Below are positions 2,373 through 43,405 of a stretch of DNA of 64,000 nt, piece by piece (the stretch's first letter is position 1; each line of letters opens with the position of its first letter). This DNA comes from an uncultured Planctomycetia bacterium. GTDB lineage: Bacteria > Omnitrophota > Gorgyraeia > 2-02-FULL-51-18. A program made the translations under genes and the position numbers. A model generated the notes under the pieces. The model was not told where the DNA came from, did not search any database, and saw only the letters and a program-made list of their open reading frames with translations. The DNA lies in the NCBI GenBank assembly GCA_964642015.1, contig CAZXLF010000003.1:100204-164203 (forward strand), read 5' to 3'.

Positions 2373-2396
2373 CGGTGATCGTTTAAAAGGAGTGAC

Positions 2397-3637: not shown

Positions 3638-3638
3638 A

Positions 3639-7567: not shown

Positions 7568-8580
7568 AGGACGTTCTTTTGAAATTGCAGGAGCGCAAAG
7601 ATTTGGATCCCGCAGAAATGGCAAGCGCGATGGAATTCGTCATTTCCGGTCGCGCATCGGATGAGGAGATAGAGCGGTTTTTGATCCTTCTGAGGGAAAA
7701 AGGCGAAACAGCCGCTGAGATCGCGGCCGGTGCAAATGTGATGCGCAAGCACGCGCTCACATTATCCAAAAATTATCCGGATCTTCTTGATACCTGCGGC
7801 ACTGGAGGAGACGGTAGCCGAACGCTTAATGTTTCAACTTTAGCTGCTTTGACAGCTTGCGCGGCAGGGGTTAGGGTGGCTAAACACGGCAACCGTTCGT
7901 TGTCGGGCGTTTCAGGAAGCGCTGATCTTCTGGAATCGTTAGGAGTTCCGATAGACCTTCCGGTTAGCGCGGTTGAAAAAGCGATTGAAAATATCGGATT
8001 CGCGTTCTTATTCGCACCCATATTCCATCCCGCGACCCGTTTTGCAGGACCCGCCAGAAAAAAGATCAAAGGCAAAACGATTTTTAATATTTTAGGCCCT
8101 TTATCGAACCCAGCCGGCGTGCAGTATCAAGTGATCGGTGTTTACGATAAAAAACTCATCGAGATCGTAGCCCAGGCGCTTTTAGACCTTGGCACAAAAA
8201 GGGCTTTAGTAGTTCATGGCGCCGATGGGTTGGATGAAATAAGTGTCTCGGATAGAACTTTCGCAGTAGAGCTTACGAAGGGGCAACTGAAAAAATATGA
8301 AATATTGCCGGAGGAACACGGAATTCAAAAAAGTTCGCATAAAATCCCTGTATGCGACACAAAAGAAGATTCAAAAAAAATGGCGCTTGAAGTTTTAAAA
8401 GGCGGTCAAGGAGTCAATCATGATCTGGTTTCTTTAAACGCGGCAGCCGCACTTTATATATCAGGAAAGGCAAGCTCCATTAAAGAAGGTGTTCATGTAG
8501 CAAAAAAACTTTTGGCCGAAGGCGCGGTTCATAAGAAACTGGAAGAAATTATTTTATTTTCTAAAAAAGTGACGGTTTGA
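7564..8580 (+). CDS. trpD: Anthranilate phosphoribosyltransferase
   Basis: 338 aa, [17 protein letters not shown]...KHGNRS. Confidence 0.93.
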
Positions 8581-9365
8581 TGACGATCCTTGATCAGATA
8601 GTCAAAAATAAGACCCAAGAAATAGAGCTTTTGAAGCAAAAGAATCCAATCGAGAAATTGCTTCTTGCGATCAAAAAATTACCCAAAAAGAAAACTAGTT
8701 TTTATGACTCTTTGAAGAAAATCAGAGGCGTCGCTGTGATCGCCGAAATAAAGAAACGTTCGCCATCGAAAGGTATTTTAAGAAAAAATTTTCGGCCGGT
8801 AGCGATCGCGGAATCTTATGAGCGCGCAGGTGCAAGCGCTTTATCGGTATTGACGGATGAGAATTTTTTTGGAGGATCTGTAAAAGTTTTGAAAAAAGTG
8901 CGCGGTCGCACAAAACTTCCTATATTGAGAAAGGATTTTATCCTCGACCTTTATCAGATCTATGAAGCCAGGATCATTGGAGCGGATGCGATACTTCTGA
9001 TCGCTGACATTTTGTCGAAAGAGGAGCTTGAAGTTTTAAGCAAAAAAGCATTTGAGTTGGGGTTGGACGTGCTTTTTGAAGTGCATACACCGGAAGATGT
9101 TGATAAGATATTGCCGCTGAAGCCCAAGATGGTCGGCATCAATAACCGTGATCTGCACACGTTTAAAGTAGATCTGGGCGTGACTGAGCGTCTTCTCAAA
9201 CGTTTTCCAAAAAAAACGCTGATTGTTTCTGAAAGCGGTATCCAAAGTCCCGAAGACTTGTTATATTTAAAGCGATTGGGCGTTGACGCAGTGCTTATTG
9301 GTGAGAGTTTGATGCGGGAAAATGATCCTGGAAAAGCGCTGAAGAATTTGAAAGCTGTTCTGTGA
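8577..9365 (+). CDS. trpC: Indole-3-glycerol phosphate synthase
   Basis: 262 aa, IAEIKKRSPSKG...LRKDFIL...NNRDL. Confidence 0.92.
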   Translation: MMTILDQIVKNKTQEIELLKQKNPIEKLLLAIKKLPKKKTSFYDSLKKIRGVAVIAEIKKRSPSKGILRKNFRPVAIAESYERAGASALSVLTDENFFGGSVKVLKKVRGRTKLPILRKDFILDLYQIYEARIIGADAILLIADILSKEELEVLSKKAFELGLDVLFEVHTPEDVDKILPLKPKMVGINNRDLHTFKVDLGVTERLLKRFPKKTLIVSESGIQSPEDLLYLKRLGVDAVLIGESLMRENDPGKALKNLKAVL

Positions 9366-9970
9366 CGCGGGTCAAGATCTGCGGCATAACCAATCTTCGC
9401 GACGCGGAAGACGCTGTTGAATTCGGAGCCGATGCGATAGGGTTTGTGTTCGCTAAAAGCCCAAGACGGATATCGTTAAATGACGCCAAAAAAATATCGC
9501 TTCGCCTCGGCCCTTGGGTTACAACGGTGGGAGTGTTCGTTAACGAAACTAAAAAGAATATTTTACGGATCGCATCAGAATGCCGGTTTTCTGCAATACA
9601 GCTTCACGGGGATGAGTCAGCTTCCGAGCTTTCAGGTTTTGGAGTCTTAAAGATCATAAAAGCATTCAGGATTTCCAAAAAAGAAGATTTGAAAGTAGTG
9701 GAAACGTACAAAGCCGACGCTTATCTATTTGATACAAAAGCAGGCGGTATTTATGGAGGTAGCGGCAAGAGATTTGATTGGAATATTTTAAGAATGAAAA
9801 ATACTCCAAAACCTTATATCATTTCAGGTGGACTCGACCCCCGAAATGTGCAGACCGTGATCTGTAAGCTGTCCCCGTATGGTGTTGATGTGTCTTCGGG
9901 GGTTGAAAAATACCCGGGAAAAAAAGACCCTGTTTTGGTTAAACAGTTCATCAAAAATGCAAAAAAATAA
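9362..9970 (+). CDS. trpF: Phosphoribosylanthranilate isomerase
   Basis: 202 aa with a GTG start; VKICGIT...QLHG. Confidence 0.88.
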
Positions 9971-11162
9971 TTTTACTCATATGCCAGACAAAAAAGGACA
10001 TTTTGGACCTTATGGCGGCAAGTATGTGCCGGAGACGCTGATGTCCGCGCTTGACGAGCTTGAGGCGAGTTACCGCTTGGCAAAAAAAGATCCCGGATTT
10101 CAAAAAGAATTGAATGATTATCTTCAGAATTTCGCAGGAAGGCCTACAAAATTGACCGAAGCCAAGCGTCTGTCAAAAGTTTTAGGTGTAAGACGCGTTT
10201 TTTTAAAGCGCGAGGATCTTTTGCATACAGGCGCTCATAAAATAAATAATACCTTAGGTCAGGTGCTTTTGACGCTTCGGATGAAAAAAAAGCGGGTTAT
10301 TGCTGAGACAGGCGCTGGACAGCATGGGGTAGCGACGGCTACGGTCTGCGCACTTTTTGGTATTTCTTGTGACGTGTATATGGGTCAAGAGGATATCGAA
10401 AGGCAGGCACTCAATGTGTTCCGCATGAAACTTTTGGGTTCGCGGGTTATCCCGGTGAGAACAGGTTCGCAGACTCTGAAAGACGCTGTGAACGAAGCGA
10501 TACGCGATTGGGTCACGAATGTCAGAGATACTCATTATATTATTGGCTCTGTGATTGGACCGCACCCTTATCCAATGATGGTGCGTGATTTTCAGTCGGT
10601 CATAGGGAAAGAAGTTAAATCGCAATTAAAGAAAATGCGTTCACCTTGGCCGAATTATTTGGTCGCCTGTGTCGGCGGAGGTTCCAACAGCATTGGATTG
10701 TTCCACCCGTTTTTATCGACGAATTCCAAAATGATCGGTGTCGAGGCGGCGGGCTTGGGAACGCATACCTCTCAACATGCCGCGACTCTCACAAAAGGAA
10801 GTATCGGCGTTCTTCACGGATCCAAAAGCGAAGTTTTGCAAGACCGCGACGGCCAGATCAATCTGGCGCATTCGATATCGGCGGGGCTCGATTATCCCGG
10901 TGTGGGCCCGGAACACGCTTATTTGAAATCGACAAAACGCGTGAACTATGTCTCCGCTACCGATAAAGAAGCGCTGGCAGGCGTGAAAGCTTTAAGCGAA
11001 ACAGAAGGGATCATTCCGGCGCTGGAACCGGCCCACGCGATCGGTTACCTACTGAAGAATAGATCCAAATTCAAAAAAAGCGACACGATCGTCCTTTGCT
11101 TATCAGGGCGAGGTGATAAAGACGTCGTCCAGATCTCTAAAGCGATGGGTTATCATGAATAG
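9957..11162 (+). CDS. trpB: Tryptophan synthase beta chain
   Basis: [12 protein letters not shown], the [12 protein letters not shown]-lysine motif, and GGGSN. The start is placed at ATG 9957 (an alternative is 9981). The tabulated ORF extends upstream in the same frame into trpF. Confidence 0.92.
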
Positions 11163-11955
11163 AATCGATAAAAAGTTCGCCGAATTAAAGAAACAAAGAA
11201 AAAAAGCGCTGATCATTTATATGACAGCAGGGGATCCTGGTCTTCAAAAAAATGAAGCGCTTATTCATTCGTTTGAAAAAGACGGCGTAGACCTTATTGA
11301 GCTCGGTGTGCCATTTTCAGATCCGCTTGCTGACGGTCCGGTGATCCAGGCCGCTTCACAGCGTTCATTGAAGAGAGGAACAAATTTACCCAAGATCTTA
11401 AAACTTGTTCAGCGTGTCCGTAAAAGATCCCAGATCCCTATTCTCTTAATGAGTTATCTGAATCCAATCCTGCGCCACGGGTTAGAATCTTTCGCCAAAT
11501 CTGCCAGAAAATCAGGGCTTGATGGAGTGATCATTCCGGATCTTCCGCCCGACGAAGGACAAGACGTCGCTCCGATTATGCGCCGTCACAATATCGCGTT
11601 GGTGTATTTGCTCGCCCCTACAAGCACAGAAAAGAGGATCTGGCTTGTATCGAATTCTTCACGAGGTTTTATTTATTACGTATCATTAACAGGTATCACA
11701 GGCGCCAGAAAATCCGTGCCGGTCGATTTGGGCCGAAGGATCAAAGCTATTAAAAAGACATCTCGTCTTCCTGTCTGCGTGGGCTTTGGTGTCTCCACGC
11801 CAGAACAAGCCAAAAAAGTTGCTCGCTTTTCAGACGGAGTCATTATAGGAAGCGCTGTTGTTAAATCTTTGGCGGCGCATCCATCGGCTAACGCGGCGCA
11901 ATTCTCTAAAAAATTCATCCGGCCTATTGCAAAGGCCATGGGAAAAAAGGTCTGA
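11155..11955 (+). CDS. trpA: Tryptophan synthase alpha chain
   Basis: ATG at 11155 overlaps the trpB stop. The protein reads [12 protein letters not shown]...[15 protein letters not shown]. Confidence 0.9.
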
Positions 11956-21879: not shown

Positions 21880-22260
21880 ATGAGAGAAATATTCATTAAG
21901 ACCAAAACATCCGAAAACCATAAACGAAAAAATCTTTCGATTATCGAAGTGATCAACCAAGAAGGGTTTGTTGCCAGAGCAGAGAAAAAATACTCTTACT
22001 ATGTTTCTGAGCAAAATCCTGCCAGTGATAAAGAGCAGCTGAAGGACTGGGTCAGCCTGCACTCTCAGGAATATCAAAAAAAAGACCGTCACGTATCTAT
22101 TCGAAAAACTTTTGACCAGAAAACCGGACTCGGACAAATGGTTTACCGGGTGATAGGGAGCTTTTATGTGGTGCAGAACCTGCATATTTTTGCGGTTGTA
22201 TTCATGCACAGCATTAAATTCGATATGCTGACAAGCCAATTGCCCAATAAGAAGTTCTAA
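21880..22260 (+). CDS. Hypothetical protein (126 aa) immediately downstream of the HD-GYP gene
   Basis: The ORF starts 4 nt after the HD-GYP stop, with no recognisable motifs. An antisense ORF (21781-22239) is the alternative. The plus strand is preferred on operon context only. Confidence 0.35.
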   Translation: MREIFIKTKTSENHKRKNLSIIEVINQEGFVARAEKKYSYYVSEQNPASDKEQLKDWVSLHSQEYQKKDRHVSIRKTFDQKTGLGQMVYRVIGSFYVVQNLHIFAVVFMHSIKFDMLTSQLPNKKF

Positions 22261-22357: not shown

Positions 22358-23365
22358 ATGTTACATAAAGATACAAAAATTAGTATCTTAGGCGACGGCG
22401 GTTGGGGAACGACGCTTGCGATACTGCTTGCTGGCAAATCTTACGCAATAACACTATGGGGCGCTTTTCCTTCTTATGTCAAAGAAGTCCAGAAGCTTAG
22501 AGAAAATCGAAAATTTTTGCCAGGCTTCAAGATCCCTGAAAATGTAATTCTTGTTAGCGACATTCATGAAGCCTGCTCTGCATCCGAATGGATCGTTTTA
22601 GCGATCCCGTCGCAATTCATGAGAAGTGTGCTGCACGGAATAAGAAAAGACAAAGTCCATCATAAAAATTTTGTGACTGTTGCAAAAGGGATCGATACAC
22701 AAAGCTTAAAGGTGATGTCGCAAGTCATTCATGATGAATTGGGCAAGGTTCGACTGGCTGTGATCTCAGGGCCGACGATCGCGCGCGATGTAGCTTTAAA
22801 AATGCCGTCCGCCGCTTCGGTGGCTTCTTCAAACCCGAAACTTGCTTCAGAAGTAAGAAGCATGTTCACTACCGAATATTTCAGTTTATTCGAAAGCACC
22901 GATGTGTTGGGTGTAGAACTTGGTGGATCTATAAAAAATGTGATCGCGATCGGCGCGGGGATCGTTGAAGGGTTGGGTTTTGGTTCAAATACACGGGCAG
23001 TTTTATTTTCTCGAGGCGTCGCTGAAATGGCGCGTCTCGGTGAAGCGATGGGCGCTGATCGGCAAACCTTTACAGGTTTAAGCGGATTGGGGGATCTTGC
23101 CACGACTTGTCTGAGTCCTCATAGCCGAAACCGCTGGCTTGGAGAGGAGATCGGCAAGGGAAAACCACTGAACAAGATCTTAAAAGAAACAGAAATGGTA
23201 GTGGAAGGTGTTGAAACGGCCAAGGCCGTTTACAAACTCTCCAACAAGTGCGATGTTGCGATGCCTATTAGCCGAGCTGTTTACGAAATTTTATTCAACG
23301 GGCACGAACCAAAAGAAGTGCTTCGGGCATTGATGAAGCGAGGACCACACAAGGAATCGGAGTAG
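22358..23365 (+). CDS. gpsA: NAD(P)H-dependent glycerol-3-phosphate dehydrogenase
   Basis: 335 aa, ISILGDGGWGTTLAILLA...GSIKNVIAIGAGI. An upstream TTGACC-17-TATACT promoter-like sequence is present. Confidence 0.92.
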   Translation: MLHKDTKISILGDGGWGTTLAILLAGKSYAITLWGAFPSYVKEVQKLRENRKFLPGFKIPENVILVSDIHEACSASEWIVLAIPSQFMRSVLHGIRKDKVHHKNFVTVAKGIDTQSLKVMSQVIHDELGKVRLAVISGPTIARDVALKMPSAASVASSNPKLASEVRSMFTTEYFSLFESTDVLGVELGGSIKNVIAIGAGIVEGLGFGSNTRAVLFSRGVAEMARLGEAMGADRQTFTGLSGLGDLATTCLSPHSRNRWLGEEIGKGKPLNKILKETEMVVEGVETAKAVYKLSNKCDVAMPISRAVYEILFNGHEPKEVLRALMKRGPHKESE

Positions 23366-23397: not shown

Positions 23398-23473
23398 CGG
23401 GGTGTGGCTCAGCTTGGTCTAGAGCGCTTGCTTGGGGTGCAAGAGATCGGTGGTTCGAATCCACTCACCCCGA
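23398..23473 (+). tRNA. tRNA-Pro (anticodon GGG)
   Basis: Hand-folded. Acceptor stem CGGGGTG/CACCCCG, anticodon stem CTTGC/GCAAG with loop TTGGGGT (anticodon GGG), T-loop GGTTCGAATCC, discriminator A. Confidence 0.85.
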
Positions 23474-23495: not shown

Positions 23496-24797
23496 ATGAA
23501 AAAAAATGCAGCAACGATCAATATCGGGTTGGTTGGCTTAGGGACTGTCGGGACCGGTGTTGTGAAAGTCTTGCGTTCTGAGGCTAAAGCGATCGAGGCA
23601 AGGACCGGACTCCGCTTGGTTCTAAAAAAGATCTGTGTGAAGAGCGTTTCAAAAAAGCGGGCAGTTCAGGTTCACCGTCATTTGCTGACAACAAATCCGA
23701 ACGATTTGATCAACGATCCGCATATCCATATTTTGGTCGAATTAATCGGCGGCATCCATCCGGCCAAAGATATTATTTTCAAAGCGCTGTCAAACGGCAA
23801 ACAGGTAGTGACGGCAAATAAAGCCCTTTTGGCTGAAAAAGGCGAGGAGATCTTTTCTTATGCCGCTAAGCGTTCGCGTTATATTGGCTTTGAAGCAAGC
23901 GTTTGTGGCGGCATTCCGGTCATACAGTCCATCAAAGACGGTTTAGTTTCCAATAACATTTCAAATATTTTAGGCATTGTGAATGGTACCTGCAATTTCA
24001 TATTGTCCTCGATGTCAGAAGGTTCTCAGGATTTCAAAGAAGCGCTAAAGAAAGCTCAAACCAAAGGTTTTGCTGAAAAAAATCCCGCTCTCGATGTTGA
24101 TGGGACAGACTCCGCACACAAACTGGCTATATTGTCTCGATTGGCTTTCGGTAGCCGCGTCAATTTTAAGTCTATCTCGATCGAAGGGATCAGGAATATT
24201 TCAGAAACAGACATTATCTACGCCAAAGAACTTGGTTATGTGATAAAACTCTTGGCGGTGGCTAAAAAATTAAAGAACGGGATCGAATTGCGCGTTCACC
24301 CAACGCTATTACCCTTTAACCATCCTTTGTCAAATGTCCGGGGAGTTTATAATGCCGTTTTCATTCAAGGTGATCAAGTAGGCGACCTTCTTTTATACGG
24401 AAGAGGTGCCGGGATGTTTCCGACGGCATCCGCGGTTTTAAGCGATTTGGTTGATATCGCAAAAAAAATATCAGATCACGATAATCTGAAGGCCAAAGCT
24501 ACCGTTTCTTTGCGCGAAACAAAGATCCTTCCGATCGATGATATTGTCTCAAGATATTATTTGAGATTCCAGGTTGCTGATAAACCCGGCGTATTGGGGC
24601 GGATCGCATCGGCTTTAGGCAAAAACAATATCTCGATCTTGAGTGTCCACCAAAAAGAATCGCATAGCGCAAAATTGGTCCCGGTGATCATTTTGACATA
24701 TGAAGCACGGGAGTCGGATCTCAAAAAAGCTCTTAAAGTGATCGACTCGAGCCGCGATATTAGCAGAAAAACCATCGTGTTCAGGGTGGAAAAATGA
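23496..24797 (+). CDS. hom: Homoserine dehydrogenase (with C-terminal ACT domain)
   Basis: 433 aa, [11 protein letters not shown]...a C-terminal ACT-like region. Confidence 0.92.
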
Positions 24798-25861
24798 TCT
24801 GGAAAGGGGTGATCGACCGATATAGAGAGTATTTGCCGGTTACAAATTCTACACCGATCGTGACGCTGAACGAAGGGAACACGCCTCTCATCTATTCCCG
24901 TTCTTTATCAGACCTTTTGTCCGCGTCGGTTTTTCTGAAATACGAAGGCCTTAATCCGACGGGATCTTTCAAAGACCGCGGAATGACTTTAGCGCTGTCA
25001 AAAGCGGTGGAGGCGGGTTCCAAGATGGTTGTTTGCGCATCAACAGGGAACACCTCGGCATCTGCGGCTGCTTATGCGGCAAGAGCCGGTATCAAAAGCG
25101 TGGTGCTGATCCCGAAGGGTGCGATCGCGCTGGGAAAATTAAGCCAGGCGCTGATCCACAATGCTCAAGTGATCCCGATTGACGGAAATTTTGACAAAGC
25201 GCTTCAAATGGTGAAGGAGTTAGTAGAGAAGAAACCGGTAACGCTTGTTAATTCTTTGAATCCATTCCGGCTTGAAGGACAAAAAACGGGCGCTTTTGAG
25301 ATTTGCGATCAGTTGGGTGGACAAGCTCCGGATTTTCACGCGATCCCGGTGGGCAATGCCGGAAACATCACGGCTTATTGGAAAGGTTACAAAGAATATT
25401 TTGACAAAAAAATCGTCAATTCAAAACCTATCATGCTCGGTTTTCAGGCAGAGGGCGCTGCGCCGATCGTCAAAAACAAGGTCATAGCAAATCCAAAAAC
25501 TGTGGCGACGGCGATCAGAATAGGTAATCCGGCAAGCTGGAAAATGGCCGTGGCGGCCAGAGACGAGTCTAGAGGCGTTATTGATACAGTGACGGACAAG
25601 GAAATACTTGCCGCGTACAAATTGTTAGCGGCCAAAGAAGGTGTATTTGTCGAACCGGCGAGTGCTGCCAGCGTGGCGGGTATATTGAAACTGAACAAAA
25701 ATAAATATTTTGAGAAAAATAAACGCAATAAAAAAGCGGTGGTCGTGTGCGTGCTTACCGGACACGGCTTAAAAGATCCTGATTGCGCGCTGCGGGAGAT
25801 AAAAAAACCAAAAACAGTTCCGGCTCGCTTTGAATCATTGTCGAGGGTTATTAAAATATGA
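24794..25861 (+). CDS. thrC: Threonine synthase
   Basis: 355 aa, [13 protein letters not shown]-lysine motif. It overlaps hom by ATGA. Confidence 0.92.
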
Positions 25862-26997
25862 AATACGTGCTGTTGGTTTGCGAAGGGATCTCTGATGAGC
25901 CGTTGGAAGAGCTGACGGGGCGGACACCGCTTGAAGTTGCCAAAACGCCGAATATGGATTTGCTGGCGAAACAGGGCGCTTCAGCTCAAGCATTATTTAC
26001 GCCGGGAGCATTGCCCCCGAGCGGCGATGTAGCGGCGATGTCTTTATTGGGATTCGATCCAGAGGAATTCTATACGGGCATTGCCCCTTTGGAAGCGATC
26101 GCGATGGGAATACCGCAATTAGACCATGCGATCGCGTTTAGATGCAATCTCGTAAGCGTGCTTGACGAGACCTTGATCGATGCGTACTCAGGGAACATTT
26201 CATTGACCGAATCTGTGATTCTAATAAAAGCGCTTAACCAAAAGCTTTCCGATAACCGGATTAAATTTTATACGGGAGCTGGATTTAGAAACCTTTTACT
26301 TTTCAATGATGCCGAACTTTCGGAAAGCTTGGACGAGCTAGAATGTGCGTCTCCGCGAACCGCGATCGGGCAGAGGGTCTCAAAAAGTTTTCCTAAAGGC
26401 CATGGCGCATCGGCTGTGATAGACCTGATGAATGCATCCAAGGAAATATTGGATAATCACGAGATCAATAAAGTGCGGATCGATCTTGGCGAGAATCCGG
26501 CAAATATGATCTGGTTATGGGGGCAAGGCAAAAAACCCAAAATATCCAGTTTCAAACAACGCTACAATCTGGACGGTTCTGCATGGTCCAAGACAACGGC
26601 GATCCAAGGTCTTGCGCAGGCCTTAGGTTTTCATAAAGCAGAAAATGCGGTATTAGCTGTCAAAGAAGAGGATTTTGTTTTTGTCTATCACGGATTAGCG
26701 GAAGAAAAAAAGATCGATCTGACATCAAAGATCAAACACATAGAAGAATTTGACGCATCGGTGCTGGGCCCAGTCTTAGATCAACTGAAGAGCGGCACTT
26801 TTCGCATTTGTGTCGCCGGAGATTATCCGATGCTATTATCAAAAAAGATTCCCATGCACGGCCAAGTCCCGGTTTTATTCTCCGGAAACGGCATTGCATC
26901 TGACGGTTCTGCGGTTTTTAATGAAAAAACTTGTCTCGAAAGCAAGCTTATTTTCAATCACGGTCATAAACTGATGGAATATTTTTTGAAATCATAA
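25858..26997 (+). CDS. Cofactor-independent phosphoglycerate mutase family protein (archaeal ApgM type); candidate non-orthologous homoserine kinase
   Basis: 379 aa, [15 protein letters not shown]...TPNMD, metalloenzyme (alkaline-phosphatase-like) superfamily. It is translationally coupled (ATGA) to thrC in a hom-thrC-X-lysC operon that lacks a GHMP-type thrB. Confidence 0.8.
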
Positions 26998-27028: not shown

Positions 27029-28246
27029 ATGAGTCTTATCGTTCAGAAGTATGGCGGTTCAAGCGTTGCAAATCCCGATCGCATCAAGAAGGTGGCTGAC
27101 AGGGTCTTTCGATATAAAAAAAAAGGTCATTCATTAGTGGTGGTCGTCAGCGCGCTGGGAGACACCACGGACGAGCTTCTGACGCTTTCCGATCAGATCA
27201 CAAAGAACCCTTCAAGGCGCGAGCTGGACATGCTGATGTCCACAGGCGAACAGATATCGGTAGCGCTGCTTGCGATGGCGCTTCATGAATTAAAGTGCCC
27301 GGCGATCTCGTTCACCGGAGGGCAAGTCGGCATTAAAACGGATTCGGCTTATACGCGCGCCAGGATTTTAGATATCAGCACCCAAAAGATCCAAAAAGAA
27401 CTTAAGGAAAAAAAAGTAGTGATCGTTGCCGGATTTCAGGGAATAAACCTTGAACAGGAGATCACGACGCTCGGAAGAGGCGGGAGTGACCTAACCGCCG
27501 TGGCTTTGGCAAAAGCGTTGTCGGCGGATGCTTGTGAAATTTATACGGACGTCGAAGGAATATTTACGACGGATCCAAGACTTGTTTCTGACGCAAAAAA
27601 GATCGCTAGGATCAGTTATGAGGAGATGTTGGAGCTCGCAGCTTCAGGCGCTCAAGTCATGCAATCGCGTTCGATCGAGGTGGCCGGAAAATACGACATA
27701 CCCATTCATGTGAGAAGCAGTTTTTCAAATAACGAAGGTACGTGGATCGTGAAGGAGGATCGTTCGATGGAAGATGTTTTGATTCGAGGAGTATCATTGA
27801 GCAAGAATGAGGCCAAATTAACACTGAGCGGCGTCCCAAATCGCCCGGGCATCGCGGCCGGGATCTTCAGGACGCTTGCCGATAAAGGTATCAATGTTGA
27901 TATGATCATTCAGAATATCGGTAAGTCAACCGATACGGATATCACATTCACAGTGCCCAAACAAGATATCGATCACGCCGTCAACTCTCTAAAAGCATTA
28001 GCTAAAAAAGTGGGCATCAAGGGAATATCACAGGATACCAAAATAGCCAAGATATCCGTTGTAGGCATCGGAATGAGGAGTCATGCTGGTGTCGCGGCGG
28101 CCATGTTCGAAGCATTGGGGAAAAACAAGATCAATATCGAAATGATCTCAACGAGCGAGATCAAGATCTCATGCGTGGTAAAAAAAACTTTTGCTGAAAA
28201 AGCAGTGAAGGTCTTGCATGATCATTTCAAACTCGGAAAAAAGTAA
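27029..28246 (+). CDS. lysC: Aspartate kinase
   Basis: 405 aa, LIVQKYGGSSV...KVVIVAGFQG, two C-terminal ACT domains. Confidence 0.93.
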   Translation: MSLIVQKYGGSSVANPDRIKKVADRVFRYKKKGHSLVVVVSALGDTTDELLTLSDQITKNPSRRELDMLMSTGEQISVALLAMALHELKCPAISFTGGQVGIKTDSAYTRARILDISTQKIQKELKEKKVVIVAGFQGINLEQEITTLGRGGSDLTAVALAKALSADACEIYTDVEGIFTTDPRLVSDAKKIARISYEEMLELAASGAQVMQSRSIEVAGKYDIPIHVRSSFSNNEGTWIVKEDRSMEDVLIRGVSLSKNEAKLTLSGVPNRPGIAAGIFRTLADKGINVDMIIQNIGKSTDTDITFTVPKQDIDHAVNSLKALAKKVGIKGISQDTKIAKISVVGIGMRSHAGVAAAMFEALGKNKINIEMISTSEIKISCVVKKTFAEKAVKVLHDHFKLGKK

Positions 28247-29830
28247 ATGTCACTAAGAAAAATAGAATTATACGACACGACACTGAGAGATGGTTCTCAG
28301 GGAGAGGGAATTTCATTTTCTGTTCAAGACAAGCTCTTGATCGCGAAAAAGATCGATGAGATCGGATTTCACTACATTGAAGGTGGTTGGCCCGGGGCTA
28401 ATCCGAAAGATATTGCTTTTTTTGAAGAAATAAAAAAGGTCAGACTCAAGAATTCTCAGGTTGTTGCCTTCGGTTCTACCCGCAAAGCCCATTCAAAAGC
28501 CGCAGAAGATGAAAATTTGAGAGGGCTTCTTGCGGCCGAAACAGAGGTCATTACCATCTTCGGAAAAAGCTGGGATCTTCATGTAAAAGAAGTCTTTAAA
28601 ACCGATCTTGAAGAAAATATCCAGATGATCCACGATTCTGTGAAATATCTCAAATCTAAAGGTAAAAAAGTGGTGTATGATGCCGAGCATTTTTTTGACG
28701 GATACATTCACAACCCTTCTTATGCTTTAAAAACGCTGCGTACGGCTTTGGAAGCCGGCGCTTCGGTGCTTGTACTTTGCGACACGAACGGCGGGAGTTT
28801 ACCTTCTAAAGTATCTAAGATCGTATCGGAGGTCCATTCACAGATCCAATTTCCTCTTGGGATCCATACGCACAATGATTCAGGTGTTGCCGTTGCAAAC
28901 GCTATCGCCGCCGTTGAAGCCGGCTGCCAGCACGTGCAGGGAACAATTAATGGTTATGGCGAACGCTGCGGAAACCCGGATCTCACGACGATTACCGCCG
29001 ATCTCCAGTTGAAACTCGGTTTTTCTTGTCTGCCTGCGGCAAAATTAAAAGAATTGACCGAATTGACCCGCTTCGTTGCGGAGATCAGCAACATGGTTCA
29101 GGCAAAAAATCAGCCGTATTTTGGCCAAAGCGCCTTTGCTCATAAAGGCGGGGTCCATATCAATGCGGTCATGAAAAACCCGGAAACTTACGAACACATC
29201 GATCCGGCACTCGTGGGTAATCACCGGCGCTTTCTTGTTTCGGAACTCGGAGGCAAAACCAACGTGATGCTGAAAGCCAAGGAGCTTGATATTGAATTAA
29301 AAAAAGAATCTCCTGAAACAAGAAAGATTCTGCAAAAAGTCCAGGAAAGAGAAAATGAAGGCTATCAATACGAAGCTGCGGAGGCTAGCTTTGAGCTTCT
29401 GATCCGCGAGGTGACCGGCAAACGTAAAAAATTCTTTGAGTTCAAAAAAGTTGAAGTTCTGGCGGAAAACATCGGTGATAAGGACACAACCTCTACAGCG
29501 AAGGTGGTGCTATCCGTTAATTCCAAAGAAGGTCGGCGGGAAGAGGGCAAAGGGGAGGCTAAAGGCGATGGCCCTGTGAATGCGCTCGATAATGCATTAA
29601 AAAAAGCTTTGGCTCCTTTTTTCCCACAGGTGTTGGAAATCCATTTGGATGATTATAAGGTACGCGTGGTCAATTCAGAAGCCGGTACGGCGGCCAAGGT
29701 GCGCGTTTTCATCGAAACGCGCGACGAAAAGAACATCTGGACAACCGTCGGAGTTTCTACCAATATTATCGACGCCAGCTGGAAAGCGTTGGTTGACGCG
29801 ATCGAATACAAATTGTTGAAATCCAAATGA
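28247..29830 (+). CDS. cimA: Citramalate synthase / 2-isopropylmalate synthase family (CimA-like, with LeuA-dimer regulatory domain)
   Basis: 527 aa, LYDTTLRDGSQGEGISF, HTHNDSGVAVAN. Its position in an Asp/Thr operon suggests the pyruvate route to 2-oxobutanoate. Confidence 0.78.
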   Translation: MSLRKIELYDTTLRDGSQGEGISFSVQDKLLIAKKIDEIGFHYIEGGWPGANPKDIAFFEEIKKVRLKNSQVVAFGSTRKAHSKAAEDENLRGLLAAETEVITIFGKSWDLHVKEVFKTDLEENIQMIHDSVKYLKSKGKKVVYDAEHFFDGYIHNPSYALKTLRTALEAGASVLVLCDTNGGSLPSKVSKIVSEVHSQIQFPLGIHTHNDSGVAVANAIAAVEAGCQHVQGTINGYGERCGNPDLTTITADLQLKLGFSCLPAAKLKELTELTRFVAEISNMVQAKNQPYFGQSAFAHKGGVHINAVMKNPETYEHIDPALVGNHRRFLVSELGGKTNVMLKAKELDIELKKESPETRKILQKVQERENEGYQYEAAEASFELLIREVTGKRKKFFEFKKVEVLAENIGDKDTTSTAKVVLSVNSKEGRREEGKGEAKGDGPVNALDNALKKALAPFFPQVLEIHLDDYKVRVVNSEAGTAAKVRVFIETRDEKNIWTTVGVSTNIIDASWKALVDAIEYKLLKSK

Positions 29831-32535
29831 CAACCCCAAAAGAAGAGCTCTCAAAAGTATACAATCCCAAACTTGTGGAAAAGTCATGGTACCAGACGTG
29901 GCTCAAAAAAGGCTATTTCAAGGCCTCTTCCAAATCCAAAAAGAAGCCCTACACGATCATGATTCCTCCGCCGAACGTGACCGGCATTCTGCACATGGGC
30001 CACGCACTCAACAACACTTTGCAAGATATCCTGATCCGGTACAAAAGAATGAGCGGTTTTGAAACGCTCTGGATGCCCGGGACAGATCATGCGGGTATCG
30101 CGACACAGAACGTTGTCGAAAAATCTTTAAGAGAAGAGGGAATTTCGCGTCACGCTCTTGGACGAGAAAAATTTTTGGAGCGCGTCTGGAAGTGGCGTGA
30201 AAAATACGGTAACACGATCATTAATCAGCTTAAACGGCTTGGCGCTTCTTGCGATTGGGACAGGACCCGCTTCACGATGGACGAAGGACTCTCGACGGCT
30301 GTTAGGGAAGTCTTTGTTAGACTACATGAAAAAGGGCTCATTTACCGGGGTAAATACATCATTAACTGGTGTCCACGCTGCCAAACCGCGTTGTCCGATG
30401 AAGAGGTCCAGCACAAAGATATTACAGGGCATCTTTATTATTTAAAATACTCGATCGAAGGAAGCGATCAGCATTTTGTGATCGCGACCACGCGTCCCGA
30501 GACGATGTTGGGGGATACCGCTGTTGGTTATAATCCTACGGATGAACGTTATCAGCATCTCGAAGGAAAAACGGCGGTCCTTCCGCTTTTGAATCGGCGT
30601 CTTAAGATCATCAAAGATAGTTCTATTGACCCCAAGTTCGGAACAGGTGCTCTCAAAATAACCCCCGCTCACGATCCTGTCGATTTTAATCTTGCGCAGA
30701 AACATAATCTCGAATTCATCAACATCTTAAATCCTGACGGATCGCTGAACGCGCAAGCAGGCCCTTATCAAGGCCTTGATCGTTTTGAGGCCAGAAGAAA
30801 AATAATTGCCGAACTCGAAGATCGTCGTATCCTTTTAGAGACCAAAGAGCATGTTCACGCGGTCGGGCATTGTTACCGCTGCCAGACCATTATCGAGCCC
30901 TATTTTTCTTCACAGTGGTTCGTGCATATGAAACCCATTGCGCGTCCGGCAATCGCTGTGGTCAAAGACGGTAAAACAGCGTTTACTCCAAAGCGATGGA
31001 CAAAGGTTTATCTGGATTGGATGACTAACATTAAAGATTGGTGCGTTTCGCGCCAGATCTGGTGGGGCCATCGGATCCCTGTGTGGTATTGTTCACAATG
31101 CCGTGCGAACGTAAATTCAAATGATGAGGTCTATAAAAAATTCGAATACACAGGAGAAATTTACCGCGAACCCGGCATGATCGTCTCGCGGCAGGCGCCG
31201 AGGAAATGCGATGTCTGTGGGAACGCCGACCTGATACAGGACCCTGATGTTCTGGATACCTGGTTTTCTTCTTGGCTCTGGCCTTTTTCCACGTTGGGTT
31301 GGCCGGAAAAGAACAAAGACCTCAATTTCTTTTATCCGACATCCTGCTTGGTCACCGGTTACGAGATCATCTTTTTCTGGGTAGCGCGAATGATCATGTC
31401 CGGTCTTGAGTTCATGGGCAAAGAACCATTCAAGCAGATTTATATCCATGGTATTGTGCGTGATGAAACCGGCGCCAAGATGTCCAAATCTTTGGGTAAC
31501 GCTATGGATCCAATCCACATCATCGACGAATTCGGAGCTGATGCGCTGAGATTCGCGATGATCTCGATAACCTCAGAAGGACAGGATGTTTTTGCTTCTA
31601 AGGAAAAACTCGAAGTTGGACGAAATTTTTCTAATAAGATATGGAATGCCGCCCGATTTGCGTTGATGAATATCGATCTTAAACCCGCAGATCTTAAAAA
31701 AGTACCCAAACTCTCATCGCTTAATCCTATTGACCGATGGATATTAAGCCGGCTCCACCAAACGGTTATCCAAGTCACAAATAGCCTGGATGGATTGCGC
31801 TTCAATGAAGCAGCGACGACTTTGTATGATTTTTTCTGGCATCAATTTTGTGATTGGTATCTTGAATTGGCAAAACCCAATATTAAATCCAAAGAAACGC
31901 AGTGGACCTTGTCGATCGTATTGGATGTATCACTTAAACTCCTTCATCCTTTTATGCCTTTTATTACGGAAGAGATCTGGCAAAAGATCCCGCACACGGG
32001 CGAATCGATCATGATCAGCCCATGGCCTAAGAGCAATTCCAAGTGGATAGACAAAAAGACTGAAGCGGAAGTCGGACTCATTATCAGCGAGATTCAGGCG
32101 ATCCGCAATGTCAGGTCAGCATGGCAGATCAATCCCAAAGAATCCGTGACAGTGGCTGTAAAAACTGCGCGGGATAAAGAGATGCAGATTTTAAAAAAAT
32201 ATTCGTCCTATATTGCTCAAATGGCAAAGATATCTTCATTGCAAATCGGTAAAAATATCACTCGCCCGAAAGAATCTGCGGTTGCGAACATCGGCCGTGT
32301 AGAAACATATGTTGTTCTCACCGGGCTCATCGATATTCAAATGGAACGCCAACGCATTGAATCCGCTTTAAGTGATGTAGAGAAAATGATGCGGGGCCTC
32401 GAAGGACGCCTGCAAAATGCCGATTTCATCAACAAAGCCCCAAAAGACATCGTTGAAAAAGAAAAGCGAAAAGCCGAAGAATTGGAGAACCGTAAAAAGC
32501 GTTTGGAAGAGAATCTGAAAACGCTTAGCGAGTGA
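29827..32535 (+). CDS. valS: Valyl-tRNA synthetase
   Basis: 902 aa, PPPNVTGILHMGHA (HIGH), KMSKS, C-terminal coiled coil. Confidence 0.95.
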   Translation: MTTPKEELSKVYNPKLVEKSWYQTWLKKGYFKASSKSKKKPYTIMIPPPNVTGILHMGHALNNTLQDILIRYKRMSGFETLWMPGTDHAGIATQNVVEKSLREEGISRHALGREKFLERVWKWREKYGNTIINQLKRLGASCDWDRTRFTMDEGLSTAVREVFVRLHEKGLIYRGKYIINWCPRCQTALSDEEVQHKDITGHLYYLKYSIEGSDQHFVIATTRPETMLGDTAVGYNPTDERYQHLEGKTAVLPLLNRRLKIIKDSSIDPKFGTGALKITPAHDPVDFNLAQKHNLEFINILNPDGSLNAQAGPYQGLDRFEARRKIIAELEDRRILLETKEHVHAVGHCYRCQTIIEPYFSSQWFVHMKPIARPAIAVVKDGKTAFTPKRWTKVYLDWMTNIKDWCVSRQIWWGHRIPVWYCSQCRANVNSNDEVYKKFEYTGEIYREPGMIVSRQAPRKCDVCGNADLIQDPDVLDTWFSSWLWPFSTLGWPEKNKDLNFFYPTSCLVTGYEIIFFWVARMIMSGLEFMGKEPFKQIYIHGIVRDETGAKMSKSLGNAMDPIHIIDEFGADALRFAMISITSEGQDVFASKEKLEVGRNFSNKIWNAARFALMNIDLKPADLKKVPKLSSLNPIDRWILSRLHQTVIQVTNSLDGLRFNEAATTLYDFFWHQFCDWYLELAKPNIKSKETQWTLSIVLDVSLKLLHPFMPFITEEIWQKIPHTGESIMISPWPKSNSKWIDKKTEAEVGLIISEIQAIRNVRSAWQINPKESVTVAVKTARDKEMQILKKYSSYIAQMAKISSLQIGKNITRPKESAVANIGRVETYVVLTGLIDIQMERQRIESALSDVEKMMRGLEGRLQNADFINKAPKDIVEKEKRKAEELENRKKRLEENLKTLSE

Positions 32536-39906: not shown

Positions 39907-41067
39907 ATGGGAATGTGGTTAGGCCGGGGAAGAAAAGCGAGGCGGTGTTATGGGTTCGATGAAATAGCTTTGGTACCAGGTTCTATCACGATCAATCCCA
40001 ATGAAGTCGACACTTCATGGCAGATAGGAAATAAAAAGTTCAAGGTTCCCATCATCGCTTCGGCGATGGACGGTGTGGTGGATGTCAATTTTGCCATACG
40101 CATGTCTAAAATGGGAGGCATTGCGGCTCTGAATCTCGAAGGCGTGCAGACCCGCTACGAAAATCCAGAAGAAGTCTTGAGCAAAATATCAAATGTCAGC
40201 CTTGAAGAGTCCACCCATCTTTTACAAGGTATCTATAGACAGCCGATCAAGGAAAAATTGATCGCCAAACGGATCAAAGAAATAAAGAAAAAGGGTGGAG
40301 TTGCTTGTGTTTCCAGCATCCCGCAAAGAGCAGAAGCTTTTGGCAAGATCGCTCAAGATGCCGGATGCGATATTTTCATTGTTCAGTCCACGGTCACGAC
40401 CGTAAGACATATCTCGGCTGAATATAAAACGCTGGATTTCCATAAATTTTGCAAAAGCATGAAGATCCCCGTGATCATCGGCAACTGCGTGACTTATCAA
40501 ACGACGCTGGAACTCATGGAAACCGGGGTCAAGGCGCTTTTGATCGGTATTGGGCCAGGAGCGGCATGCACCACGCGTGGAGTTTTGGGCATCGGCGTTC
40601 CTCAGGTAACTGCGATTTGCGATGCAGCGGCAGCGCGTGATTTTTATTTCAAGAAAAATTCAGTTTACGTCCCGATCATCGCGGATGGCGGAATGACCAC
40701 TGGCGGCGATATCTGCAAGGCGTTTGCTTGCGGAGCAGACGCTGTAATGGTCGGTTCTGCGTTCGCCAGAGCCAAAGAAGCTCCCGGAAAAGGTTTCCAC
40801 TGGGGCATGGCTACACCTCACGCAAATCTGCCCCGCGGCACAAGAATAAGAGTGGGTACCACCGGAAGTTTGGAGGAGATCCTTTTTGGACCTGCTAATC
40901 TGGACGACGGCACTCAGAATCTTGTCGGCGCACTTCAAACCTGCATGGGCAATGTCGGAGCGCAGAACATACACGAGCTCCAACTCACCGAGCTTATCAT
41001 CGCGCCATCCATCAAGACTGAAGGAAAAGTTTTTCAGCAGGCCCAACGCGTCGGCATGGGAAAATAG
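39907..41067 (+). CDS. IMP dehydrogenase/GMP reductase family protein without CBS subdomain (GuaB3-like)
   Basis: 386 aa TIM barrel, ...IGIGPGAACTTRGVLGIGVPQ...ADGGM. There is no CBS pair insertion. Confidence 0.75.
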   Translation: MGMWLGRGRKARRCYGFDEIALVPGSITINPNEVDTSWQIGNKKFKVPIIASAMDGVVDVNFAIRMSKMGGIAALNLEGVQTRYENPEEVLSKISNVSLEESTHLLQGIYRQPIKEKLIAKRIKEIKKKGGVACVSSIPQRAEAFGKIAQDAGCDIFIVQSTVTTVRHISAEYKTLDFHKFCKSMKIPVIIGNCVTYQTTLELMETGVKALLIGIGPGAACTTRGVLGIGVPQVTAICDAAAARDFYFKKNSVYVPIIADGGMTTGGDICKAFACGADAVMVGSAFARAKEAPGKGFHWGMATPHANLPRGTRIRVGTTGSLEEILFGPANLDDGTQNLVGALQTCMGNVGAQNIHELQLTELIIAPSIKTEGKVFQQAQRVGMGK

Positions 41068-41068
41068 T

Positions 41069-41701
41069 TTGACCAAGAAGCTTTCTGTACAGCGCGATTT
41101 TTTCAAGTCATCAATTACCGATTTTCTGAATAAACTGGGTTCGGCATCTCCGTATCCCGGTGGAGGATCCGCAGCCGCTTTGATCGCCGCGACTGGCGTT
41201 TCGTTGATCGAAATGGTCACAAGGATCAATGAGCAACGGGACATGAAAAGATCGAATCGGAAATCTCCTTCCACACCTTCAAAGAACCGTGTGCTTAAAT
41301 TGGTCAATCTACGCGCGAACTTCGGAAAATTGATGATGCGCGACATTGCAGCGTTTTCAAAGCTTTCAAGTTTTCCAAAAGAAAAAAGACAAGCACCTGC
41401 TTATGAAAAAGCGCTTCAAGGGGCTGCCACAATTCCTTTGATCATGGCCCGATTAATTGCTGAAGCAATGGCGTTGGGAGAGATTGAGGTTAGGCGCACT
41501 AGCCGCTGGCTGGCTAGTGATCTGGCCGAAGCGGCAATATTACTTGAAGCGGCATTTGGTTCCGCTCGGCTAAATGTTGAAATAAATCTAGTTTCGTTGA
41601 GACCTGGTAAATTCCGCAATCAATGCGAAGGAGAACTTGACTGGATCGAAAAAAGTGTTTTACGCTCCAAAAAAGCTCTTTTAAAGGTAATGCCCGTATG
41701 A
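41069..41701 (+). CDS. Methenyltetrahydrofolate cyclohydrolase / formiminotetrahydrofolate cyclodeaminase domain protein (FchA-like)
   Basis: The FTCD_C signature SPYPGGGSAAALIAATGVSLIEMV sits directly upstream of folD. The start is uncertain: no in-frame ATG between the upstream stop and the domain, so a TTG at 41069 is assumed. Confidence 0.6.
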   Translation: MTKKLSVQRDFFKSSITDFLNKLGSASPYPGGGSAAALIAATGVSLIEMVTRINEQRDMKRSNRKSPSTPSKNRVLKLVNLRANFGKLMMRDIAAFSKLSSFPKEKRQAPAYEKALQGAATIPLIMARLIAEAMALGEIEVRRTSRWLASDLAEAAILLEAAFGSARLNVEINLVSLRPGKFRNQCEGELDWIEKSVLRSKKALLKVMPV

Positions 41702-42549
41702 TTAAAACAGGTAATATATTGAACGGCAAGGAAATTGCCGCTAAACATTTGGAAATGATCTCCAAAGAGCTCTCTGAAATACAAAAATCGGGAGCTGTTT
41801 TGACTTTGGCGACCGTGCAGGTAGGCGATGAGCATGACACAGAACTTTATGCCAAATCTATCGCTAACCTTATGCAAAAACTGGGAATCCGGCATACACA
41901 CTTACGCTTTCCAAAAACGATACAGGAAAACTTGCTTCGCCAGGAGCTGGCAAAGCTGGGAAAAGATCCGCAAATCACCGGCGTTCTGATCTTTGCACCG
42001 CTGCCGAGCCAATTTGCATTAGGTAGTCTCTTAAGAACTGTGGGCGGTCTAAAAGATGTTGAGGGCAGACTAGCGCCTCTTTCGTCACGTTCAAAGATTA
42101 TGCCTCCAACTGCGATGGCGGCCGTTGCTTTATTTGACGAAACAGGCGTGCAGGCTGAAAGCAAAGAGACTTTGATCATTGGCCGCAGTGATGTTGTAGG
42201 AAAACCGGCTGCGATGATGATGATGGATAAGAATGCAACTGTAACCATCGCCCATTCAAAAACAAATGATCTGAAAGGCCATGTTCAGCGCGCTGATATC
42301 GTAATCGTTTCCGTCGGCAAACCTGAGATCGTGAAAGGTGATTGGATCAAACCCGGAGCTGTTGTAATAGACGTCGGGGAAAATGTTGTGAATGGGAAAC
42401 TAGTTGGTGATGTGGAATTTGAGAAAGCAAAAGATAAGGCAGCGTTCATTAGTCCCGTTCCAGGCGGTGTGGGACCGGTAACCAATGTGATGCTCGTTAG
42501 AAATTTAATTTCACTTTATGAGCTTCAAAAATTGCATGGAAATCATTGA
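41698..42549 (+). CDS. folD: Bifunctional 5,10-methylene-THF dehydrogenase / 5,10-methenyl-THF cyclohydrolase
   Basis: 283 aa, ILNGKEIAAK...GRSDVVGKPAAMMM...PVPGGVGPVT. Confidence 0.92.
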   Translation: MIKTGNILNGKEIAAKHLEMISKELSEIQKSGAVLTLATVQVGDEHDTELYAKSIANLMQKLGIRHTHLRFPKTIQENLLRQELAKLGKDPQITGVLIFAPLPSQFALGSLLRTVGGLKDVEGRLAPLSSRSKIMPPTAMAAVALFDETGVQAESKETLIIGRSDVVGKPAAMMMMDKNATVTIAHSKTNDLKGHVQRADIVIVSVGKPEIVKGDWIKPGAVVIDVGENVVNGKLVGDVEFEKAKDKAAFISPVPGGVGPVTNVMLVRNLISLYELQKLHGNH

Positions 42550-43405
42550 TATTTTAAAAAAGAAAAATTTTCTTGTCACCGCCGAGCTCGGGCCACCCAA
42601 AGGCACGAATATGGAACCTTTCTTTAAACAAGCAGCCTATCTCAAAGGCAAAGTAGACGCTGCTAATGTAACAGACCAGCAGGCAGGATTAATGAAATTG
42701 GGCTCGTTGGCAAGCTGTCATTTATTAAAAGATTTTGGGATCGAGCCGATCATGCAGATGACCTGCCGGGATAAGAACCGCATCGCGCTCCAATCCGAGC
42801 TTTTGTCTGCCGCTGTTTTAGGCATCCATAATGTGCTAGTCCTCACAGGCGATCCTATTTCAATCGGCGACCATCCTGAGGCGAAAGCGGTTTTTGATGT
42901 AGACGCAGCCCAACTTATGTCTGTTATCAAAAAACTTGAAAACGGCATTGATATGACCGATCACAAGCTTGATGGGACGCCTCAATTTTCGATAGGTGCA
43001 GCGCTGAACCCCTGCGTTGACGATCTGGATACGGAGATCTCCAAAACAAGAAAAAAGATCGAGAACGGTGCCGAGTTTTTCCAAACACAGGGGGTTTTTG
43101 ATGCCGAGCGGTTCAAAAAATTCATGGATCGTTATCGGCGTGAAGGATTTCGCGTCCCGATCCTGGCGGGGATTATTCTGATCAAATCCGTTAAAATGGC
43201 CAATTTTATGAATGAAAAGATCCCCGGGATTTTTATCCCAAAAAATATGATCGCACGCTTTGAGAATGCAAAAGACCCCAAAGCGGAAAGTATTGCCGTT
43301 GCTGTTGAAACCATCAAAAACATTAGACCTCACGTCCAAGGTGTCCATCTCATGGCGATCGGCTGGGAAGAATTGATCCCAGAGATCGCATCTAAAATCT
43401 CGTAA
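42536..43405 (+). CDS. metF: 5,10-methylenetetrahydrofolate reductase
   Basis: MEIIDILKKKNFLVTAELGPPKG...TCRDKNR, the MetF fold. It overlaps the folD 3' end. The ORF also allows a start at 42518. Confidence 0.85.
   Translation: MEIIDILKKKNFLVTAELGPPKGTNMEPFFKQAAYLKGKVDAANVTDQQAGLMKLGSLASCHLLKDFGIEPIMQMTCRDKNRIALQSELLSAAVLGIHNVLVLTGDPISIGDHPEAKAVFDVDAAQLMSVIKKLENGIDMTDHKLDGTPQFSIGAALNPCVDDLDTEISKTRKKIENGAEFFQTQGVFDAERFKKFMDRYRREGFRVPILAGIILIKSVKMANFMNEKIPGIFIPKNMIARFENAKDPKAESIAVAVETIKNIRPHVQGVHLMAIGWEELIPEIASKIS

Follow-up and report, generated by a model that had tools for sequence, protein, structure and literature searches.

Does a protein that stands in the homoserine kinase slot of a threonine operon, and descends from a homoserine kinase, still phosphorylate homoserine when its active site has degenerated? 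This question is raised by a 64-kb stretch of DNA from an uncultured Planctomycetia bacterium of the GTDB lineage Omnitrophota (contig CAZXLF010000003.1, positions 100,204 to 164,203 of the forward strand), which is called the window below. It carries the gene order hom-thrC-X-lysC-cimA-valS, where X (25858-26997, + strand) encodes a protein of 379 amino acids (aa) that is derived from the homoserine kinase HomK, has a degenerate active site and belongs to a short-form (S) clade, as indicated by Pfam, NCBIfam, alignments and the predicted fold. Threonine synthase, ThrC, uses O-phosphohomoserine as its substrate. The first-pass annotation of this locus had presented X as a very clean example of a protein supplying the kinase step, a claim that we found unsupported. 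X lacks the residues needed for the phosphoserine/two-metal phosphotransfer cycle, yet it is maintained and co-translated with ThrC. The reading that we favour, with a probability of about 0.55, is that X is a conserved, probably non-catalytic HomK derivative in the threonine operon and that O-phosphohomoserine is made elsewhere. The narrower claim that X is inactive for the ancestral reaction is, judging from its residues, very probable.

Only of late has HomK gained acceptance as the homoserine kinase that was missing from many bacteria; it is the current name of the "proposed homoserine kinase" TIGR02535/ThrB2, which resembles the archaeal cofactor-independent phosphoglycerate mutase (PGM) ApgM (bioRxiv 10.1101/2024.10.14.618325). 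In that study, BT2402 of Bacteroides thetaiotaomicron rescued an E. coli thrB::kan mutant, and the diverged DET_RS08350 of Dehalococcoides mccartyi did likewise; complementation was done for these two proteins only. The general premise of the first-pass annotation, that this family supplies a non-orthologous homoserine kinase, was therefore right and has by now been validated in part. The work on HomK is genetic, in vitro biochemistry is unreported, and the mechanism is still unknown, as is the phosphate donor, which is probably not ATP (bioRxiv 10.1101/2024.10.14.618325). The criteria given for a functional HomK are the catalytic S56, the metal-coordinating Asp and His residues and the specificity residue E299, which is Lys in PGMs, and the authors checked catalytic residues before annotating diverged homologs (bioRxiv 10.1101/2024.10.14.618325). 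The proposed role of the specificity Glu is to hold homoserine by its amino group. Derivatives with a degenerate site are not mentioned in the HomK paper, and the residues that they lack are explicitly required there (bioRxiv 10.1101/2024.10.14.618325).

In family and fold, X proved to be what had been proposed for it, an ApgM-like protein of the alkaline-phosphatase superfamily. Its Pfam matches are PhosphMutase (PF10143, 1.8e-35) and Metalloenzyme (PF01676), and its closest solved relatives are the archaeal cofactor-independent PGMs 2zkt, 3kd8 and 3idd. The AlphaFold2 model of X (mean pLDDT 96.3, pTM 0.93) was matched by Foldseek to 2zkt_B with E = 5e-31, a TM score of 0.82 and a fold-alignment identity of 23%, and has the core alpha/beta phosphatase domain and the inserted cap domain of this fold. 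X is the sole HomK/ApgM-like open reading frame (ORF) within the window. Its best NCBIfam matches are the HomK and ApgM models, every one below its cutoff: TIGR02535 (HomK) gave 331.9 bits in two stretches against a cutoff of 446.3, NF003242 gave 333.2 bits against 426, and TIGR00306 (apgM) gave 312.6 bits, slightly short of 320. With TIGR02535, five other short-form members scored 274-367 bits and five canonical-form homologs 533-563 bits. The identity of X to canonical-form HomK from related loci is 42-46%. X is homologous to HomK, syntenic with it, and thus its vertically inherited positional ortholog.

The active site was compared in the best 120 database homologs, comprising 83 proteins of the S clade and 36 canonical proteins. 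The S-clade proteins are nearly all 367-387 aa long, the few named ones being entered as "hypothetical protein" from Omnitrophota, and the canonical homologs have about 400 aa and the full catalytic signature. Residues 8-13 of X (CEGISD, 25879-25896, + strand, as for all segments of X below) correspond to the canonical (G/C)DGMAD, and E9 replaces the first metal-ligand Asp. This position is D in 36/36 canonical proteins; in the S clade (n=83) it is E in 60, G in 7, Q in 6, S in 3, R in 2 and A in 1, and never D. Residues 53-57 (PPSGD, 26014-26028) correspond to xP(G/A)SD, with G56 at the position of the phosphoserine nucleophile, where all 36 canonical proteins have S and the S clade has P (22 of the 83), S (18), G (16), A (11) or R (8). 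The Arg of the canonical motif YTGRGPLEAAN (R75) is lost in X, SAGHIS has become YSGNIS with loss of its His (H113), and PPHD has become SPRT with loss of both His and Asp (H167/D168). At the K260/A261 junction (26635-26640) the alignment places the deletion of a 17-residue canonical loop, VxVPGATGYYDTNYxGK (the GATG loop), which every canonical protein has and every S-clade member lacks.

Further along, residues 276-287 (26683-26718) stand in place of the canonical VHVEAPDEAGHNGD, with G279 for the specificity Glu, E282 for a metal Asp and K284 for a metal His. The column of position 279 is E in 36/36 canonical proteins, K in 2zkt, and P, E, G, A and others in the S clade; E299 of BT2402 was assigned to it by inference, because no other nearby column combines Glu throughout the canonical proteins with Lys in 2zkt. 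At position 282, 24/83 S-clade members have E. Residues 320-324 (AGDYP, 26815-26829) correspond to LPDHP, with D322 retained and Y323 for the His; D322 is retained in 75/83 S-clade proteins and His is found at 323 in 3/83. At the canonical THT, X has no His, and P332 is the aligned residue. The metal ligands D9/D/H/D/H/H of the canonical protein therefore align to E9/E282/K284/D322/Y323/P332 of X, D322 alone being identical. In all, the nucleophile Ser and the specificity Glu are gone from X, as are six of the seven metal-site residues and a further four invariant His/Arg positions. With G56 for the Ser, this set of residues for the ligands and G279 for the specificity Glu, X fails every residue-level criterion of HomK, and its 332 bits against 446.3 point the same way; by these features X is not a bona fide HomK.

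The S clade as a whole does not preserve a site either. A weak residual set (E or D at 9, S at 55 or 56, D322 and a nearby His) is jointly kept in 29/83 members. A nucleophile shifted in register, S55 for S56, was considered and rejected: S occurs at 55 or 56 in 53/83 members only, and the remaining site is not co-conserved with it. Because the former catalytic positions are variable within the clade, they are under no catalytic constraint.

The genomic context was examined by a scan of one genome per species, which gave 80 related loci, nearly all titled Omnitrophota and the rest bearing generic PVC labels. The order gpsA-hom-thrC-X-lysC-cimA-valS-nadC-uvrB is common to these loci, as far as the contigs reach, whether X is short or canonical, and since it recurs in 80 loci from other genomes the operon arrangement is not due to chance. 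The residues at 13 diagnostic positions are D R S H Y E D H D H H G T in 60/60 canonical-form loci, save that two ORFs truncated at the N terminus lack the first position. In the window and 20 short-form loci the same positions are variable or deleted, the PDH Asp excepted. No intermediate between the two forms was seen at the 13 positions among the 60 canonical loci, the 20 short-form loci and the window. As a control, columns conserved at at least 95% in the canonical-lineage proteins were counted as kept in the short-form lineage. ThrC keeps 154/166 of them, LysC 118/125 and Hom 77/87; X keeps 48/103, with 29 lost outright. A changed ThrC substrate was ruled out on this basis: ThrC has 0 switched and 1 lost among its 166 invariant columns, and since the others are so largely kept it shows no sign of such a change.

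Neighbor-joining trees of X, thrC, lysC, valS, cimA and hom all recovered the split between the short-form lineage and the rest, and short-form X belongs to one organismal lineage in which it is inherited vertically. The stem branch of this lineage is 0.32 for X versus 0.04-0.18 for its neighbours in the same trees. The Kimura distance within the short-form lineage is 0.90 for X versus 0.27 for ValS, compared with 0.59 versus 0.49 in the canonical lineages, and the X/ThrC divergence ratio is 1.9 versus 1.4. Depending on the neighbour and the measure, X is about 1.3-3x more diverged relative to its operon neighbours in the short-form than in the canonical lineages. The S clade nevertheless has about 100 members with an intact ORF, drawn from overlapping sets of 83 database proteins and 21 genomic loci, and a 73-sequence alignment of it has 29 invariant and 43 nearly invariant columns. 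X is not a decaying pseudogene, because its ORF is intact, its length near-constant, its columns partly invariant and its fold confidently predicted. It has two traits by which a pseudoenzyme was operationally defined: catalytic residues are lost clade-wide in a homolog of an active enzyme, and the protein is intact, conserved and predicted to fold.

The short form is not the only degenerate derivative of HomK. The S clade served as the seed for a profile search of 1.84 billion cluster representatives, so that the ranking favours degenerate members, and the best 150 matches were examined. Among these, 131 full-length representatives were assessable; all seven catalytic residues are present in 67 and no more than three in 48, and 33 of these 48 have canonical length. 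One long-form degenerate clade consists of 118 proteins (P0140 and 117 relatives) of 398-401 aa with a mean pairwise identity of 0.65, and its named members are nearly all from Omnitrophota. It has A, S or P for the first Asp, R for the His of DEAGH and G, C or A for the PDH Asp. It passes only the looser apgM model TIGR00306, from which comes its PGAP name of phosphoglycerate mutase. This clade is encoded in the same hom-thrC-X-lysC-cimA-valS context with a 4-nt thrC/X overlap (L088 10001-11200, L089 10001-11212), a context shared by P0134, P0140 and P0142. In 5/5 degenerate proteins that have Omnitrophota-type synteny and a visible upstream gene, X lies directly after thrC, with a 4-nt overlap in four and a 5-nt gap in one. 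A further locus of the clade is L090 (3153-4358), and its proteins include P0140 and P0261-P0379.

The short-form and long-form clades lie at distances of 1.15 and 1.09 from canonical HomK and of 1.31 from each other. Since each clade is nearer to canonical HomK than to the other, and since the replacement residues differ, two independent degenerations are suggested by the sequences. For housekeeping genes, the canonical, short-form and long-form groups are roughly equidistant, which favours neither one origin nor two.

One part of HomK has been kept throughout. Residues 201-224 of X (26458-26529) form a HomK-specific block, HEINxVRxDLxENPANxIWxWGQG, which canonical HomK shares with both degenerate clades; the PGM 2zkt differs there and reads HPINERRRKEGKPIANYLLIRGAG. 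The block contains one retained Arg plus acidic residues. In all, 69 positions are conserved in the short-form and canonical groups alike, and 53 in canonical, short-form and long-form degenerate proteins, including the block from E202 to G224. No new polar constellation common to the two degenerate clades was found, their shared changes being only L126, D151, K289 and F354, which argues against a replacement active site. The survival of these 24 residues in all forms points to a part of HomK that matters beyond phosphotransfer. We infer that the block may help to bind an amino-acid ligand or a partner, which would explain why X is kept, and it could also help to identify the donor of active HomK.

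If X does not make O-phosphohomoserine, another enzyme should. The six-frame ORFs of the window contain no homolog of E. coli ThrB, of the GHMP family (phmmer --max, best E = 1.6; single query), so the reported absence of a GHMP kinase from the operon block holds. Pfam annotation of the other large + strand ORFs of the window gave no candidate kinase, and a literature search on threonine or homoserine metabolism in Omnitrophota found nothing relevant.

Several observations weigh against a non-catalytic X. Within 10 kb on either side of X, no alternative homoserine kinase was found at 82 long loci (single GHMP query; ThrH was not searched). Nor did a lineage-specific kinase neighbour emerge when all locus ORFs were clustered: only BirA, CoaX, PlsY, LepA and a 126-aa unknown protein differ. 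ThrC still needs its substrate, which argues that X retains some role in making O-phosphohomoserine. X itself keeps the conservative E9 and E282, plus D322, S55 beside the nucleophile position and H334, and may thus have a crippled or altered metal site. Threonine operons are not the only setting of degenerate relatives, some of which have valS, dnaA, a GATase or MTHFR as a neighbour. Moreover, the loss of activity is deduced from sequence alone, and the regulatory or partner role of X is proposed by analogy.

These points bear on the possibility that X is a working HomK, phosphorylating homoserine for ThrC either via a remodelled site (E9, S55, E282, D322, H334) or by a mechanism free of phosphoserine and two metals. 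Its place in the operon is perfect, with ATGA coupling to thrC; it is the positional ortholog of canonical HomK; the unchanged ThrC still calls for O-phosphohomoserine; the HomK-specific block is retained; and the change of D to E at two ligand positions could still allow metal to bind. Some weight is left to this explanation because no other enzyme making O-phosphohomoserine was found in the window, flanks or neighbours. It is nevertheless unlikely. The residues on which a remodelled site would depend are not conserved in the clade, where position 9 may also be G, Q, S, R or A, position 56 varies among P, S, G, A and R, E282 occurs in under a third of the members and the full set in little more than that. 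The invariants on the substrate side are lost as well (R75, H113, H167, D168, the Glu at 279 and the GATG loop), the TIGR02535 score is below its cutoff, and the HomK authors annotate only proteins that have the Ser and the metal ligands. In addition, the replacements at the lost site differ between the two degenerate clades, which have no new polar set in common. A somewhat less probable course is that X was neofunctionalised to another enzyme or binding protein, unrelated to homoserine phosphorylation and merely left in its old slot. The strong constraint on the long-form clade, the degenerate relatives that adjoin valS, dnaA, a GATase or MTHFR in the absence of threonine genes, and the 48/131 assessable representatives with at most three of seven catalytic residues (among the best 150 matches of a ranking that favours degenerate members) are all consistent with it. 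No new conserved catalytic constellation was seen, however, and degenerate X lies directly after thrC in all five proteins with Omnitrophota-type synteny and a visible upstream gene.

That X is a functionless, decaying relic is largely refuted and would now be surprising. X does evolve faster than its neighbours in the short-form lineage, and over half of its canonical invariant columns are unkept. Against this, the ORFs have stayed intact and near-constant in length although ValS proteins of the lineage differ by 0.27 substitutions per site, the invariant and nearly invariant columns persist, the predicted fold is confident, translational coupling is kept, and the second degenerate clade is conserved as strongly as canonical HomK. 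Least credible of all is a genuine cofactor-independent PGM, the label given to X by IMG and to the long-form clade by PGAP. The Pfam PhosphMutase match, the TIGR00306 score just below cutoff and the passing of that model by the long-form clade agree with such a label, but X has neither the nucleophile Ser, nor the metal ligands, nor the PGM-type Lys; it is encoded in a threonine operon, and it clusters with HomK, not with PGMs.

We therefore retain the reading of X as a conserved, probably non-catalytic derivative of HomK. According to it, X would be unable to run the phosphoserine/metal phosphotransfer cycle and would persist because of a non-catalytic role linked with threonine synthesis, while ThrC would receive O-phosphohomoserine from an enzyme encoded outside the window. 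By analogy with HisZ and HisG, X might bind a ligand, such as a homoserine-like amino acid, or be a protein-binding partner of ThrC, Hom or LysC. A more specific version, which we offer tentatively, is that HomK gave rise, probably twice in Omnitrophota, to dead thrC-coupled partners that sense a ligand or bind ThrC, Hom or LysC in a HisZ-like manner, with homoserine phosphorylated by an unrecognised enzyme or by a recruited kinase that is encoded at another place in the genome.

HisZ is a catalytically dead paralog of histidyl-tRNA synthetase (HisRS) that serves as the regulatory subunit of the short-form ATP phosphoribosyltransferase (ATP-PRT) HisG. As a functional analogy only, X would resemble it as an enzyme homolog without catalysis, conserved and encoded with the amino-acid pathway that it serves. 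The two differ in that HisZ coexists with an active HisRS, whereas X stands, as its ortholog, in the place of the enzyme itself; for this reason the degeneration of X leaves a pathway step unassigned. Compared with HomK, X has the same fold, homology, slot after thrC near hom and HomK-specific block; apart from the residues and loop that it has lost, it differs in being about 20 residues shorter and in scoring below cutoff. With ApgM (2zkt, 3kd8, 3idd; TIGR00306) it has in common the two-domain alkaline-phosphatase-superfamily fold, but besides the nucleophile, metal site and PGM-type Lys it is without the Arg cluster (ERRRKEG has become KVRIDLG), and its context is threonine genes, not glycolysis. 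ThrB (GHMP) and ThrH, a phosphoserine:homoserine phosphotransferase of the HAD family, carry out the reaction expected at the slot of X, but their folds are unrelated to that of X.

HomK itself was known already; a conserved derivative with a degenerate site that keeps the operon slot of HomK is undescribed. Annotation pipelines and pathway tools will read a HomK/ApgM-like gene beside thrC as a filled thrB gap, or as a phosphoglycerate mutase, and this is likely to be a systematic mis-annotation. The protein behind any call of threonine prototrophy in these Omnitrophota is probably unable to do the reaction, so that a pathway gap reopens across a whole bacterial lineage. The occurrence of a canonical or a degenerate ortholog in an otherwise identical operon is also a natural experiment that can separate catalytic from non-catalytic functions of HomK.

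The operon of the window was annotated in full on the + strand, and both the gene order and the 4-nt ATGA coupling at hom/thrC and thrC/X reported in the first-pass annotation were borne out, the order by the ORFs and the overlaps by direct reading of the sequence. The upstream neighbour is gpsA (22358-23365), followed by a tRNA-Pro(GGG) gene (23398-23473, ARAGORN) that ends 22 nt before the start of hom. The latter (23496-24797) encodes a homoserine dehydrogenase of 433 aa with a C-terminal ACT domain (PF03447, PF00742, PF01842; NF004976, 539.2 against a cutoff of 205), and thrC (24794-25861) encodes a threonine synthase of 355 aa (TIGR00260, 328.6 against 167.1). X is on the same strand as both, in the order hom-thrC-X, and is separated by 31 nt from lysC (27029-28246), which encodes a monofunctional aspartate kinase with two ACT domains (Pfam; NF005155, 597.2 against 346). 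The citramalate synthase gene cimA (28247-29830; TIGR00977, 755.9 against 450) overlaps by 4 nt with valS (29827-32535; NF004349, 1235.6 against 704), the 3' neighbour kept across related loci, and nadC and then uvrB follow. Thus hom, thrC, lysC, cimA and valS all exceed their curated NCBIfam cutoffs. The tRNA-Pro(GGG) gene lies between gpsA and hom in 23/24 related loci checked, and the threonine operon may be co-transcribed with a tRNA gene or start just after one.

Some features of the related loci and proteins were also noted. Degenerate HomK-like genes outside threonine operons are located at L092 7058-8242 (P0197), L086 116-1303 (P0160), L091 1136-2323 (P0159) and L093 7514-8707 (P0215); in L092 the gene is directly upstream of valS, and hom, thrC, lysC and cimA are not nearby. 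In many canonical-HomK loci a DFP/CoaB-like gene lies between thrC and homK, and homK is separated from lysC by a CstA transporter gene (e.g. L023 9351-10001, L021 11207-12793), insertions that never occur in short-form loci. These two genes were considered as clues to the phosphate donor, and no obvious link was found. One metagenome-assembled genome (JBDRBZ010000067.1, JBDRBZ010000097.1) holds two separate canonical hom-thrC-homK loci, which suggests a mixed bin or a duplicated region. In P0162, P0182, P0183, P0189, P0199 and P0223, a canonical HomK domain of about 400 aa with all catalytic residues is followed by a C-terminal part of 600-700 aa that consists of a charged linker, a transmembrane helix and repeat-rich sequence; these proteins could be either genuine fusions or products of faulty gene calling.

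Elsewhere in the window, the Pfam-annotated + strand ORFs include his, trp, haem, folate and CoA genes. Because clusters for his (1152-5508), trp (5508-11955), C1-folate (40886-43405) and haem (45094-50841) are present, the organism looks broadly prototrophic. All family-assigned ORFs are on the + strand, and the cumulative GC skew climbs nearly monotonically. The + strand ORFs without a Pfam match are 21880-22260, 53787-54395, 54482-55084, 56867-58048 and 58444-59265, the first of which encodes the 126-aa protein and is a neighbour at 64% of short-form loci versus 5% of canonical ones. Finally, the ORF at 59297-60379 encodes a ParA/MinD-type ATPase with a C-terminal AMPK1_CBM glycogen-binding module, which is an unusual combination.

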